This document shows, in pieces, positions 17,382 to 36,412 of a stretch of 64,000 nt of DNA. Below the pieces are notes generated by a model. It saw only the letters and a list, made by a program, of their open reading frames with translations, was not told the origin of the DNA and searched no databases. Source of the stretch: Escherichia phage CLB_P2; the sequence record OL770107. One strand, given 5' to 3'. A program made the position numbers and the translations under genes. The number at the start of each line of letters is the position of its first letter. Position 1 is the first letter of the stretch.

Positions 17382-17681
17382 ATGATTTTAACTGAACAAG
17401 AAACTATTCGGCTCCGTGAAAAAGTCAAGACTATCTTGTCTGTAGGCTTTCACGAAGTTCTGTTTGAAAAGGCGGATGGCAGCGTTCGTCGTATGACTTG
17501 TACTCGCGACCTAGACCTCCTCCCATATAAAGAAATTCAAGCACCGGGCCCAGAAGCTAATAAAGAACCGGTTAATTATATTCGTGTATTTGATACCAAG
17601 GTTAATGACTGGCGCTCGTTCCGTTTCGATAAACTGATTTCTATTAACGGGCTTCAGACTGAAACTCTGCTTGTCCTGTAA
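17382..17681 (+). CDS. hypothetical protein (99 aa)
   Basis: ORF between cd and gene 31. Confidence 0.5.
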   Translation: MILTEQETIRLREKVKTILSVGFHEVLFEKADGSVRRMTCTRDLDLLPYKEIQAPGPEANKEPVNYIRVFDTKVNDWRSFRFDKLISINGLQTETLLVL

Positions 17682-17683
17682 TA

Positions 17684-17708
17684 TGCTTTAAGAATAGCGT
17701 GTTATTAT
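17684..17708 (+). promoter_or_regulatory. candidate middle (MotA-box) promoter for gene 31
   Basis: TGCTTTA at 17684-17690 matches the MotA-box core; TATTAT 12 nt downstream; about 30 nt before the gene 31 ATG. Confidence 0.4.
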
Positions 17709-17739
17709 TAATCTATCAACAAAACAACATGGATTAAAT

Positions 17740-18063
17740 ATGGAACTTCCTATTAAAGCGGTTGGAGAATATGTTATTCTCGTTTCCGAACCAAAACAAG
17801 CTGGCGATGAAGAAACTACTGCATCTGGTATCGTTATTGGCAAACTTCATCAAGGTGAAATCCCTGAACTTTGTGAAATTTATTCTGTAGGACCTGATGT
17901 CCCTGAAGGTTTTTGTGAAGTAGGCGATTTGACTCCACTTCCTGTTGGTAAGATTGCTAACGTGCCTCACCCTTTAGTTGCATTGGGTATTAAACAGCCT
18001 AAAGAAATTAAACAGAAATTCGTTACCTGTCACTATAAAGCTATTCCGTGTCTTTATAAGTGA
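17740..18063 (+). CDS. 31: co-chaperonin gp31 (GroES-like), 107 aa
   Basis: [21 protein letters not shown]...[20 protein letters not shown]...[23 protein letters not shown] matches remembered T4 gp31. Confidence 0.92.
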
Positions 18064-18223
18064 TATAAATAATAATATGGATTGGCTGATGCCATACAGA
18101 GCTTTGCTGGTGTATGGGGTTAGCTAATCCTAAGCGGTGGACTACAACTGAGAGACTTGCCGAAAGGAAGTGAAATTCAGAAGAACGTGTCCACCAATCT
18201 TTATCTCGAATTGAGAATTTAAA

Positions 18224-18472
18224 ATGAACAAACATCTGAATCACGCTCTTGAACTGCAACGCAACGCTTGGAACAACGGCCACGAAAACTATGGTGCATC
18301 TATTGATGTTGAAGCCGAAGCACTGGAAATCCTGCGTTATTTCAAACATCTTAATCCTGCTCAGGCTACTCTGGCTGCTGAACTGGAAGCAAAAGATGAA
18401 CTGAAATATGCTAAGCCTTTGGCTTCAGCAGCTCGTAAAGCAGTACGTCATTTTATTATTACCCTGAAGTAA
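18224..18472 (+). CDS. rIII: rIII-like lysis-inhibition accessory protein (82 aa)
   Basis: 82 aa, the same size and position (after gene 31) as T4 rIII; no motif verified. Confidence 0.55.
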   Translation: MNKHLNHALELQRNAWNNGHENYGASIDVEAEALEILRYFKHLNPAQATLAAELEAKDELKYAKPLASAARKAVRHFIITLK

Positions 18473-18825
18473 AATCGAGGAGCCGTCGAACTGTCTGATT
18501 AATGATTTGCGAATCATTATAGTTTTAAGACCCCGGCAGTTTTACGGTGTACCTCTTGAATGTTATTTTATAGCGGCAAGTGCATGCTACCCCGAGGTGA
18601 TGGCCAATCGGGAGTACGCCTCAAGGCCTATATACCCATCAGTATATATCTTATCCTCGAGAAATCGAACCCGGAACCTTTAAGCTAACGGTGTGCAACA
18701 GATAAGAGCTATGATGACGAGGTTTATGGTTATCCTGTCGTTAAATATCCGAAACCTATGTTCCCCTTGAGGGCTTGCGCAGGCAACGCCAATAAGTCCT
18801 GCATTCTAATTTAAGAGATTTAAAA
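18473..18825 (+). other. about 350-nt region without a convincing ORF; candidate structured leader or ncRNA
   Basis: All frames are interrupted; candidate ORFs are 42 aa or shorter and lack a ribosome-binding site; several local inverted repeats. Confidence 0.3.
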
Positions 18826-18987
18826 ATGGCTAAGAAAGAAGTTAAAGTAGTTGACGGAACCTCTAAACGCGCTGGTTACAAGCGTGCGTCTAACAAGCGT
18901 ATCAATCAGGTAGTTGATAAGCTTCAAGCTCGTGCTCGTGCAGTATTGCGTGCAGATGCTGCTTGCTTCGGTAAAGTTATTGCATAA
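18826..18987 (+). CDS. small basic protein (53 aa)
   Basis: ATG at 18826; Lys/Arg-rich product MAKKEVKVVDGTSKRAGYKRASNKR...; followed directly by a strong terminator. Too short for the ORF track. Confidence 0.4.
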   Translation: MAKKEVKVVDGTSKRAGYKRASNKRINQVVDKLQARARAVLRADAACFGKVIA

Positions 18988-18992
18988 GTTAT

Positions 18993-19020
18993 GGGACTCT
19001 TCGGAGTCCCATTTTTGTTT
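18993..19020 (+). terminator. rho-independent terminator
   Basis: GGGACTC-TTCG-GAGTCCC hairpin followed by ATTTTTGTTT. Confidence 0.7.
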
Positions 19021-19038
19021 CTAAATCTTTAAAAAAAG

Positions 19039-19067
19039 GTATACATCTCCGGTAGGCATGATACTAT
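19039..19067 (+). promoter_or_regulatory. early-type promoter (degenerate -35 GTATAC, -10 TACTAT)
   Basis: 17-nt spacing; followed by a conserved 40-nt leader. Confidence 0.4.
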
Positions 19068-19108
19068 AGACATGTACCAAATAATACGAAAACAAACTGG
19101 AGAATAAA

Positions 19109-19477
19109 ATGAAAATCAATCTTAACTCATACATCAAAGGTAAAGACCACGACGGTTACAAAGCCATTGAAACTAAAGAGATGCAATGGCGCTTGTACAA
19201 AGAACAATTTGAATTTGTAGGTTGTATGACTCCTGAAGGTCCTTCCGATGACTTCTCTTGGAAAATTTTGGTAACAAACTTTTTTACTGGCGATACCTAC
19301 GAACTGAAAACTATCATAACCGGTAAGATTCGTTGTAAGACCTATGAAGATGAAGAAACCGGTTATTCTGAAGATGTTACATGGTATCAAAATGGTCGTA
19401 TCACTACAGATAACCTGATCGAAAAAATGAATGCCAAAGGTGAATTAAATTTAGATAATTGGATTAAAGTTGCATAA
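19109..19477 (+). CDS. hypothetical protein (122 aa)
   Basis: ORF with SD GGAG; the 40-nt leader up to the ATG is identical to that of the next ORF. Confidence 0.6.
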   Translation: MKINLNSYIKGKDHDGYKAIETKEMQWRLYKEQFEFVGCMTPEGPSDDFSWKILVTNFFTGDTYELKTIITGKIRCKTYEDEETGYSEDVTWYQNGRITTDNLIEKMNAKGELNLDNWIKVA

Positions 19478-19481
19478 AACG

Positions 19482-19521
19482 GTTTACTTTGGTACAGGTT
19501 GTGTTATTATAGACCTGTACC
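19482..19521 (+). promoter_or_regulatory. early-type promoter with inverted repeat
   Basis: GTTTAC 19482-19487, TATTAT 19505-19510; GGTACAGGT / ACCTGTACC inverted repeat. Confidence 0.5.
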
Positions 19522-19551
19522 AAATAATACGAAAACAAACTGGAGAATAAA

Positions 19552-19917
19552 ATGAACTACATCAACTTCGAACGTAAATATGTTTCTAACGGTATCGCTG
19601 GTTCTTCTGAAGTTATTTGTCTGTGGAAACACAACAACGGCACAGTGTGTGAAATCGAACAGTGCATGACTCCTAACTACGTTTATATGCGCTTTGAAAA
19701 TGGTATCACAGTTTCAATCACTATGGAAGGTTCTACTTTTAAAATCGCTTTGGACGATGATTTCCGTCAACGTGATTTAGGTACCCATCCTTGCTGGAAC
19801 GGTTCTAATCGTAAGCTTCTGGTTAAAACCTGGATTCGTCACATCCTGAGCAACCGTGCTAAACCTGAACACCTGGAAGCAATCTTTGATGTAGTTCTGA
19901 ATGAATTTGATATCTAA
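19552..19917 (+). CDS. hypothetical protein (121 aa)
   Basis: ORF with the same leader and SD as 19109..19477. Confidence 0.6.
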   Translation: MNYINFERKYVSNGIAGSSEVICLWKHNNGTVCEIEQCMTPNYVYMRFENGITVSITMEGSTFKIALDDDFRQRDLGTHPCWNGSNRKLLVKTWIRHILSNRAKPEHLEAIFDVVLNEFDI

Positions 19918-35609: not shown

Positions 35610-36044
35610 ATGAGTAAAGAGATTGAATATAAATTGGAATCATTCCAAGATGCATTAGATGAAGATTTAAAAATTGATGGGACTCGTTTACAGTATGAAG
35701 TACAGAACAACGTTTTGCTGCACAGCAAATGGCTAAGGCTGTATACGAATTGTAAGAAAGAGATAATGCGATTAGAAATCCAGAAAAAGACCTCTCTCAA
35801 GAAGAGATTAGATTTCTACACGGGACGTGGAGAGCCTGGTGATGAGGTTTGTATGGACCAGTATGAGAAGTCAGAATTAAAGACTGTAATGGCCGCAGAT
35901 TCTAGCGTGATTAAAATCGATACATCAATTCAATATTGGGCTTTATTACAGGACTTTTGTAGTTCGGCACTTGATGCCATTAAGGCGCGTGGGTTTAACC
36001 TTAAGACCATGCATGAGATGAGACAATTTGAGGCAGGTAAATAA
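35610..36044 (+). CDS. uvsY: recombination mediator UvsY (about 144 aa)
   Basis: Strong match to remembered T4 UvsY (RLQYE..NNV.L.SKWL, YEKSE.KTV, SALDAIK.RGF, FEAGK); start taken at ATG 35610 with SD AGGAAA. Confidence 0.9.
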   Translation: MSKEIEYKLESFQDALDEDLKIDGTRLQYEVQNNVLLHSKWLRLYTNCKKEIMRLEIQKKTSLKKRLDFYTGRGEPGDEVCMDQYEKSELKTVMAADSSVIKIDTSIQYWALLQDFCSSALDAIKARGFNLKTMHEMRQFEAGK

Positions 36045-36182: not shown

Positions 36183-36350
36183 ATGTCAGATAAGATTTGC
36201 GTTGTCTGTAAAACTCCAATCGATGCTGCATTGGTTGTTGAAACAGAAAAAGGTCCGGTTCATCCGGGTCCATGTTATAATTACGTTCAAAGCATGCCTG
36301 TTACGGAAAACACTGAAGAACAGCTGAACGAAACCCAATTATTACTTTAG
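36183..36350 (+). CDS. small Cys-rich ORF (55 aa), uvsY.-2-like
   Basis: SD AAGGAG 7 nt upstream; CVVC...PGPC zinc-ribbon-like motif. Confidence 0.45.
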   Translation: MSDKICVVCKTPIDAALVVETEKGPVHPGPCYNYVQSMPVTENTEEQLNETQLLL

Positions 36351-36380
36351 TCTAGTGTGTATAGCCATTTTATGGTTATT

Positions 36381-36412
36381 GGCCCTTCCGAAAGGTTGGG
36401 CCCTTTTTGTTT
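36381..36412 (+). terminator. rho-independent terminator after the uvsY operon
   Basis: GGCCCTTCC-GAAA-GGTTGGGCC imperfect hairpin followed by CTTTTTGTTTTT. Confidence 0.55.

Follow-up and report, generated by a model that had tools for sequence, protein, structure and literature searches.

The lysine riboswitch contains a kissing loop between its P2 and P3 helices, and the SAM-I riboswitch is built on a four-way junction. Among T4-type phages, promoter-early stem-loops (PeSLs) were reportedly described by Arbiol, Comeau and Krisch in 2010 as mobile regulatory cassettes of the genome. Conserved structures that are bound by proteins also occur on T4-type mRNAs, namely the gene 32 pseudoknot, the gene 43 operator hairpin and the RegA sites. 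The latter three are covered as well in a review of T4 post-transcriptional regulation (PMC3014915). The present analysis concerns Escherichia phage CLB_P2 (record OL770107), of which a stretch of 64,000 nucleotides, here called the window, was analysed, and within it the non-coding gap between the genes rIII and 30.9. The main feature of this gap is a pseudoknotted four-way-junction RNA of ~140 nucleotides, here called module B. It was absent from the description in an earlier note on the same DNA, which was made from the sequence alone and proposed a structured leader, a small RNA or a decayed gene.

No description of B was found in the review of T4 post-transcriptional regulation (PMC3014915) or elsewhere in the literature searched, which covered T4 rIII and 30.9, structured RNAs of T4-like phages and non-coding anti-defence RNAs of phages. 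It may have been overlooked there because T4 lacks B. The text of a catalogue of viral structured RNAs with >10,000 unnamed candidates (PMC10690425) is without mention of T4-like phages, and B may be one of these candidates.

Module B: fold, covariation and distribution

A first alignment of B, in which EcS1 (Escherichia) and fHe-Yen9-01 (Yersinia) represented divergent phages, comprised 20 distinct sequences and was folded with RNAalifold. In the predicted fold, the stem P1 closes a four-way junction formed by P1, P2/P2a, P3 and P4, and P4 branches again into P4a, with a loop that is mostly GNRA, and P4b. The positions of these elements in the window are as follows.

18570..18712, + strand: module B, a structured RNA of ~140 nucleotides on a four-way junction, supported by covariation and by a score of 180 bits with the covariance model R1
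18570-74 / 18708-12, + strand: P1, the closing stem
18575-77 / 18626-28, + strand: P2
18586-95 / 18608-19, + strand: P2a
18598..18603, + strand: 5' half of a kissing helix, UGAUGG, in the terminal loop of P2a
18629-35 / 18642-48, + strand: P3
18636..18641, + strand: 3' half of the kissing helix, CCAUCA, in the loop of P3
18649-55 / 18701-07, + strand: P4
18657-60 / 18665-68, + strand: P4a, here with a GAAA loop
18669-73 / 18689-94, + strand: P4b

In the alignment of 20 sequences 98.2% of the cells were paired, and 22 of the 44 pairs had changed on both sides. Shuffled alignments had a mean of 8.0 compensatory pairs and none of 500 reached 22, while sliding the partners by 1-3 columns left 26-42% of the cells paired and at most 6 compensatory pairs. 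A second alignment, in which 15 metagenomic loci were added and the sequences re-aligned to R1, contained 30 distinct sequences. Here, 99.1% of the cells were paired and 24 of 47 pairs were compensatory; again none of 500 shuffles matched this, and the slid controls gave 25-42% paired cells and at most 6 compensatory pairs. Shuffled alignments of B contained 8-9 compensatory pairs compared with 22-24 in the real ones. The earlier note had named a comparison with homologous regions of related phages as a check, and this comparison indeed yielded compensatory changes in RNA helices.

Four of the five P1 pairs covary, and the junction architecture is conserved. The positions in the P4b loop, the P2 internal loop and the GCAACA joiner hardly vary. 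Read on the + strand, G.U cells are frequent (UG:26 at one P3 pair, UG:6 in P4a, GU:7) and A.C cells are very few, so the folded strand of B is the mRNA sense strand. Compensatory changes beyond both the shuffled and the slid controls, together with strand-specific folding, are what is generally expected of a conserved structured RNA, and on this comparative evidence B is one.

In each of the 30 distinct sequences, the two halves of the kissing helix are complementary over six Watson-Crick pairs without a break. Four variants were observed: CGAUGG/CCAUCG (n=18), UGAUGG/CCAUCA (n=8, including the window), CUAUGG/CCAUAG (n=2) and CAAUGA/UCAUUG (n=2). In the alignment of 30 sequences the helix is 97.8% paired, with two varying pairs (CG:20/UA:8 and GC:26/UA:2/AU:1), and shuffled loops gave a mean of 3.7 pairs and a maximum of 4.1. 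The helix was not part of the alignment model, so its covariation support is independent. Erwinia phage Cronus, added later, scored 151 bits against R1 and has CAAUGA/UCAUUG. RNAalifold also placed a 3-bp hairpin (P2b, GGU/GCC) in the P2a loop; this was given up in favour of the kissing helix, which accounts for the same nucleotides with covariation. A pseudoknot between GAGGYG in the P2a loop and a downstream CGCCUC was also considered and dropped, as it is not kept in EcS1 and fHe-Yen9-01.

A query with B retrieved 410 phage records, all but one with a single copy. Sorted by the word with which the organism name begins, they comprised 161 Klebsiella, 130 Escherichia, 27 Shigella, 27 Enterobacter, 18 Yersinia, 7 Salmonella, 7 Citrobacter, 6 Serratia, 4 Raoultella and 4 Erwinia records and others, and Edwardsiella phages also carry B. 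In the annotated loci of dhaeg, slur14, Mineola, PS2, PEi26, PG7, CF1 and Cronus it lies between rIII and 30.9, as it does in all rIII-anchored IMG/VR loci that contain it. A search of the 64-kb window with R1 found exactly one copy, and no B was detected in the loci of T4, RB69 and other phages lacking it. The sole record in which B is split is MW239157.1 (Klebsiella phage vB_KpnM_17-11), where two pieces lie on opposite strands at 35670-35889, either through a local inversion or through an assembly error.

The identity of B is 91-95% in phages of Klebsiella, Enterobacter, Citrobacter and Edwardsiella and falls to ~82-84% in that of Serratia, PS2. Across genera, the range for B is 82-92%, compared with 62-79% for rIII, gene 31 and 30.9, and the divergent copies of EcS1 (71%) and fHe-Yen9-01 (65%) retain every helix. 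The high identity relative to the neighbouring genes and the fold kept in diverged copies thus suggest that B is old and selected for its fold. Between some Tequatrovirus and Dhakavirus phages the identity reaches 99%, which points to exchange of B by recombination between them. Its presence is patchy inside genera, some Tequatrovirus phages (slur14) having it and T4 not.

The gap contains mechanical open reading frames (ORFs) of 58 (TTG start, 18507-18683), 42 and 25 residues, none with a PHROG match. The earlier note had stated that every frame is broken; this is not so in the window itself, where these ORFs are present, and it holds across homologues, in which each of the three frames of B is interrupted by stops in one or another sequence. 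In addition, single-base insertions and deletions occur within 95%-identical stretches of the gap, which is incompatible with a conserved reading frame. Many Escherichia and Klebsiella records have coding sequences annotated as 'hypothetical protein' over B, for example CPT_Mineola_216 of Mineola (L003 1183-1332). Because no frame is conserved across the homologues, these calls are most likely spurious.

The rIII-30.9 transcription unit and its RNA modules

The window derives from a T4-like phage of the genus Dhakavirus and is, across 17700-19500, 99.9% identical to CLBP2 and 98.6% identical to phage dhaeg. On the + strand the order is cd, two small ORFs, gene 31, rIII, the gap, 30.9, a hairpin with a U-run, and 30.8, and all neighbouring genes of the gap are on this strand. 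Apart from B, the features are the following.

17740-18063, + strand: gene 31
18064..18071, + strand: T4-type late promoter consensus TATAAATA, an exact match directly after the gene 31 stop codon
18131..18201, + strand: M2 motif in the 5' untranslated region (UTR) of rIII; 16 pairs predicted by RNAalifold, 7 of them compensatory
18224..18472, + strand: rIII, the upstream cistron, an ORF for a lysis-inhibition accessory protein of 82 residues, so named in relatives
18473-18825, + strand: non-coding gap of 353 nucleotides between rIII and 30.9
18473..18565, + strand: module A, a long irregular hairpin with its stem at 18477-18555, from RNAalifold on 14 variants
18713..18762, + strand: M3, a hairpin GAC(G)AGG / CCUGUC at 18716-18739 with covarying basal pairs, then a conserved tail GUUAAAUAUCCGAAACC
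18765..18774, + strand: HP, a small hairpin CCC-UUGA-GGG in an invariant block, then CUUGCG
18780..18803, + strand: M2mini, a covarying stem GCAGG / CCUGC with the loop CAACGCCAAUAAGU, the last fold before the 30.9 start
18814..18819, + strand: weak Shine-Dalgarno-like AAGAGA, read from the sequence, 7 nucleotides upstream of the 30.9 AUG
18826..18987, + strand: gene 30.9, a basic protein of 53 residues, phrog_1427 (profile match E = 6.5e-26)
18991..19020, + strand: intrinsic terminator, AUGGGACUC-UUCG-GAGUCCCAU at 18991-19012 plus a U-run, which ends the rIII-30.9 unit
19109-19477, + strand: gene 30.8

When ORFs of at least 60 residues were considered in six frames, 18473-19108 was the longest ORF-free stretch of the 64-kb window. 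This feature exceeds chance expectation, because it combines the longest such stretch with DNA that is conserved in ~1000 T4-like records. The second-longest ORF-poor stretch, 36183-36412, contains an ORF of 55 residues followed by a G+C-rich terminator-like hairpin with a U-run; it lies where + and - strand ORFs converge and appears ordinary.

The TATAAATA box is found at the equivalent position in T4, RB69, PG7 and CF1, and a search of the gap sequence found none within the gap. The closest upstream start for an rIII-30.9 transcript is therefore the late box after gene 31. In CF1, Cronus and L065 (an IMG/VR locus) B begins no more than ~10 nucleotides past the rIII stop codon, leaving no space for a promoter of its own. 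The missing box and the direct junction of B with rIII together indicate that the gap RNA is part of a transcript whose start lies at 18064 or further upstream and whose end is set by the terminator. The gap is thereby shown, as far as the promoter and terminator predictions go, to be the untranslated middle of an rIII-30.9 transcription unit. In the predicted late transcript, only ~410 of ~940 nucleotides are coding, which is unusual for a T4-type genome.

The earlier note had called 18473-18825 non-coding, followed by an ORF for 53 Lys/Arg-rich residues and then a terminator, and all three assignments were borne out. The ORF is a real conserved gene, annotated as 30.9 in the relatives IME08, RB69 and T4, with its synteny downstream of rIII kept. 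The core G-x-SKRAxYKR...N.R...RAR is kept in gp30.9 of 10 phages from different genera, no Pfam family scored above the cut-off and no PDB relative was found. The rIII protein is 66-91% identical among eight phages of several genera. The terminator, too, is real: directly past the 30.9 stop codon, a stem of 9 bp (5 G-C pairs) with a UUCG loop is followed by UUUUUGUUU; a G+C-rich hairpin with a U-run that closes a transcription unit is typical of Rho-independent termination. Equivalent hairpins are present downstream of 30.9 in relatives, and no other terminator-like site was found within 17600-19600. In OL964745, a T4 clone, 30.9 (L002 970-1188) is labelled '1,4-alpha-glucan branching enzyme, GH-13-type', with an N-terminal extension that runs into the non-coding modules. 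The same label occurs in other records and appears to have arisen by erroneous transfer of an annotation.

Searched by blastn, the gap matched ~1000 T4-like phage records at 90-100% identity, of which only 178 span the whole gap. Alignment with T4, RB69, slur14 and Klebsiella phage Mineola revealed a mosaic of conservation. The blocks 18473-18565 (A) and 18711-18825 are nearly identical among T4, RB69 and Dhakavirus, T4 lacks the central ~140 nucleotides (B), RB69 has unrelated sequence in their place, and Klebsiella phages conserve the central piece alone, with different flanks. The alignments and predicted folds together show that at least five conserved RNA modules, which would fold independently, follow one another in the gap: A, B, M3, HP and M2mini. 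A structured RNA, one of the options of the earlier note, is hence strongly supported, though as several separate conserved folds and not as one leader.

The modules are kept, lost or reordered among related phages, in the following orders.

This window: rIII-A-B-M3-HP-M2mini
CF1 and PG7: rIII-B-M3'-HP-M2
Mineola and PS2: rIII-M3-X1-B-HP-M2
EcS1: rIII-HP-B-M3-...
T4, RB69 and several IMG/VR phages: versions without B
Two phages with more distant rIII genes: no gap whatever

The last two are the IMG/VR genomes L062 and L063 (164-168 kb; rIII 61-62% identical), in which a terminator or another ORF directly follows rIII and neither an RNA-module gap nor a 30.9 homologue was found in the flank examined. 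The slot of B is taken by a different insert (…CACGCGUCAGAAAAAGGUUAUCUGUCUAAGUCGUG…) in RB69 (L004 ~895-940), in L048 (~1815-1870) and in some other IMG/VR phages. Another recurrent module, X1 (…GGUGAUUCGCUACCUUAAGUGCGGCUAG…), is present in T4, Mineola, PEi26, L041, L051 and L052.

Module A has 25 pairs, 5 of them with compensatory changes among the 14 variants. Its inner hairpin, UAAUGAUU-UGCG-AAUCAUUA at 18500-18519, changes from AAUGAUU/AAUCAUU to AUCGAUU/AAUCGAU. A GGAG at 18479-18482 is buried in the basal stem and deviates from the strong RegB consensus GGAGRAYARAA (PMC3014915); RNA structure protects GGAG from cleavage by RegB (PMC3014915). Two of the three basal pairs of M3 covary (UA:9 AU:6 GC:1; CG:11 GC:4 UA:1). 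By eye, the M3 loop in the homologues L026, L010, L011 and L044 pairs over 7 bp with sequence 3' of the hairpin (UUAGUAG/CUACUAA, UUGUGAG/CUCACAA, UUGUUGG/CCAACGG and UUCAAGG/UCUUGGG). Through this loop-tail pairing, M3 of several lineages would fold into an H-type pseudoknot with covariation, of which the versions in the window and in T4 show no sign.

HP is the sole block of the gap common to all five aligned phages, and most others have small variants that retain the pairing, such as CCUCU-UA-GAGGG in PS2 and CCCUUCGAGGG. M2mini is a reduced M2 and the positional equivalent of full M2 in other genera; its stem becomes AACUGG / CCAGUU in L055 and L044. The TTGC-GCAG-GCAA repeat singled out in the earlier note exists at 18777-18788, but what relatives conserve is the M2mini stem GCAGG/CCUGC at 18780-84 / 18799-803. 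Full M2 consists of an outer stem, an internal loop UACAAC / GAAGAACGU and an inner hairpin with a GAAA loop. A model of M2 (R2) scored 95.6 bits at 18131-18201 and found no second M2 in the window. In Klebsiella, Enterobacter, Citrobacter and Serratia phages full M2 lies upstream of 30.9 and not of rIII. M2 is not in Rfam. Just downstream of M2, at 18203-18226, a small hairpin UCUCGAAUUGAGA spans the rIII start region, its 3' arm being the Shine-Dalgarno-like sequence GAGA. Equivalents in T4, Mineola, PG7, CF1 and PEi26 (UCUCUAACGAGA, CCUCAUUUGAGG) suggest a conserved arrangement in which the putative Shine-Dalgarno sequence is held in a stem.

Possible roles of module B

The reading favoured here, with moderate confidence, is that the rIII-30.9 unit carries a set of conserved RNA modules and that B would be an autonomous domain among them that binds a partner in trans. 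The partner could be a protein, of the host or of the phage, or with lower likelihood a small ligand, and B may act inside the mRNA or after excision by cleavage at A/U-rich linkers. The simpler hairpins around it would most likely provide transcript protection and mRNA stability, and M2mini with the weak Shine-Dalgarno sequence is likely to organise the 30.9 translation start. A direct switching of the 30.9 ribosome-binding site by B is not proposed. The autonomous, trans-binding character is suggested because B is self-closed, occurs on either side of M3, lies 85-150 nucleotides from the 30.9 start and is absent in phages that keep 30.9.

Several observations weigh against this reading. Many positions of B are invariant and hence structurally uninformative, and part of the identity between genera could reflect recent recombinational spread rather than constraint. 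The literature searched contains no expression, processing or binding data on phages that carry B. Furthermore, B is dispensable in T4 and RB69, so its role must be accessory.

A bolder version, in which B is the founding member of a new phage RNA class, an accessory and exchangeable cassette of Enterobacterales T4-like phages that acts in trans, is advanced only tentatively. B might then, for instance, sense a small molecule, or it might inhibit or act as a decoy for a protein of the host that binds RNA or takes part in defence. If true, swappable RNA modules would be concentrated in the rIII-30.9 gap, making it a hotspot that parallels, at the RNA level, the small-ORF hyperplastic regions of these genomes. 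T4-like genomes are almost wholly protein-coding, and here about half of a late bicistronic transcript would be conserved folded RNA. The complexity and covariation of B are at a level usual for riboswitches, ribozymes and dedicated protein-binding RNAs. Should it bind a host factor or ligand, an RNA-based accessory function would join the repertoire of phage-host interactions. Pairs of phages with and without B in single genera, such as slur14 and T4, make its function directly testable, and a model of B would let annotators stop mis-calling ORFs at the rIII-30.9 locus.

The most serious competing explanation, which also weighs against a trans-acting B, is a purely cis-acting leader, considered rather unlikely. 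All modules including B would then only stabilise the mRNA against RNase E, RegB and exonucleases or tune 30.9 translation, the sole trans factors being ribosomes and RNases. The location between two co-transcribed cistrons with no promoter box inside agrees with this, as do M2mini and the weak Shine-Dalgarno sequence immediately upstream of the 30.9 AUG, the related M2 in the rIII 5' UTR, and the GGAG in the stem of A, where structure is known to shield this motif from RegB (PMC3014915). However, B is distant from the ribosome-binding site with other stable hairpins in between, its position relative to the modules and the AUG varies, and T4 and RB69 have the same 30.9 context without it. Nor would a stabiliser hairpin need anything near the elaboration of B, whose four-way junction is combined with a kissing helix and with long single-stranded parts that never vary.

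That B is a riboswitch aptamer, sensing a metabolite or signalling nucleotide and controlling 30.9 and downstream genes, is improbable. The ~140 nucleotides, the P1-closed multi-helix junction, the loop-loop contact and the near-invariant junction and loop nucleotides do resemble junction-type aptamers. Yet B alone has no Rfam riboswitch match at E <= 10, and no conserved expression platform was recognised, as neither a U-tract terminator nor a partner that would sequester the Shine-Dalgarno sequence tracks with B. What lies 3' of P1 varies from genus to genus (M3 in the window, M3' in CF1, HP in Mineola and in PS2), and B precedes the other modules in some phages and follows them in others. 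The neighbouring genes are, moreover, non-metabolic.

Phage DNA often encodes small ribozymes of several classes, and a compact pseudoknotted junction fold with invariant unpaired nucleotides would suit a role of B in processing the rIII-30.9 transcript by self-cleavage or other catalysis. It is nevertheless very unlikely that B is a catalytic RNA, given that there is no Rfam match to the hammerhead, twister, twister-sister, pistol, hatchet, hairpin or HDV (hepatitis delta virus)-like classes and their core motifs are absent.

The patchy occurrence within genera (some Tequatrovirus phages, not T4), the near-identical copies across genera and the filling of the RB69 slot by other modules could also fit a functionless selfish insert, or a DNA-level recombination or replication site, spread among co-infecting phages. 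This, too, has very little probability: the compensatory double changes, the G.U pairs on one strand and the covarying tertiary helix indicate selection on an RNA fold, which copies at 65-71% identity retain. In addition, B occupies one locus in one orientation as a single copy in all but one record, and terminal repeats and target duplications are absent. A decayed protein-coding gene, the third suggestion of the earlier note, finds support in the gap ORFs of 42-58 residues and in the 'hypothetical protein' annotations over the central element in several records, but its probability is negligible, since no relative has an intact long ORF across the gap, every frame is interrupted in some homologue, the ORFs lack PHROG matches, single-base indels occur in 95%-identical stretches, and the substitutions are compensatory and track helices, not codons.

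Comparison with known systems

At gathering thresholds, Rfam 15 gave no hits in the whole window; at E <= 10, it gave two snoRNA noise matches for 17900-19200 and none for B alone. ARAGORN found no tRNA or tmRNA in the window. The exact invariant 20-nucleotide core of B is absent from 185,579 bacterial and archaeal genomes, and blastn of B found no match in 5,426 E. coli genomes. Resemblances noted by eye to E. coli RNase P RNA (GUGCAACAGA, several 7-8-mers, J11/12), to PK1 of tmRNA and to hairpin ribozyme loops were set aside, being non-colinear, without model support and located on strands that covary as helices of B. Those to PK1 and J11/12, which are short, were judged to be chance.

T4 rnaC and rnaD (species 1 and 2) are, like B, structured phage RNAs of ~120-140 nucleotides in T4-type genomes. 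Unlike B, they lie within the tRNA cluster and are processed with the tRNAs, and T4 has both of them and lacks B. With R1 and filters off, the T4 tRNA/rnaC/rnaD region gave only noise of at most 6.9 bits. With the translational operators of T4, B shares the property of a conserved RNA structure in an untranslated or intercistronic part of an mRNA, and these operators are partly pseudoknotted. They are, however, short, lie across or next to the ribosome-binding site of the gene that they regulate and persist wherever that gene does, whereas B has ~140 nucleotides closed by P1, lies 85-150 nucleotides from the 30.9 start behind hairpins, and is optional. A sequence relation between B and these operators was not found.

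Junction-type aptamers such as those of the lysine and SAM-I riboswitches have in common with B the size class, the closing P1, the multi-helix junction, the loop-loop contact and the near-invariant junction nucleotides. They differ from B, which has no Rfam match, lacks a recognisable expression platform, varies in what lies downstream and has neighbours that are not metabolic genes. PeSLs, as short intergenic cassettes that are exchanged and reshuffled, resemble the gap in its modular gain, loss and reordering. Each PeSL combines an early promoter with a simple stem-loop and is multicopy, whereas the gap modules are promoterless, single-copy and locus-specific, and B has a complex tertiary fold. 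The orphan motifs of the Weinberg type (PMC2864571, PMC10690425) are, like B, defined by conservation and covariation and often phage-borne; B differs from the deposited families in matching none of them. It appears to be an undescribed RNA family of a known kind, a conserved structured RNA on a phage mRNA.

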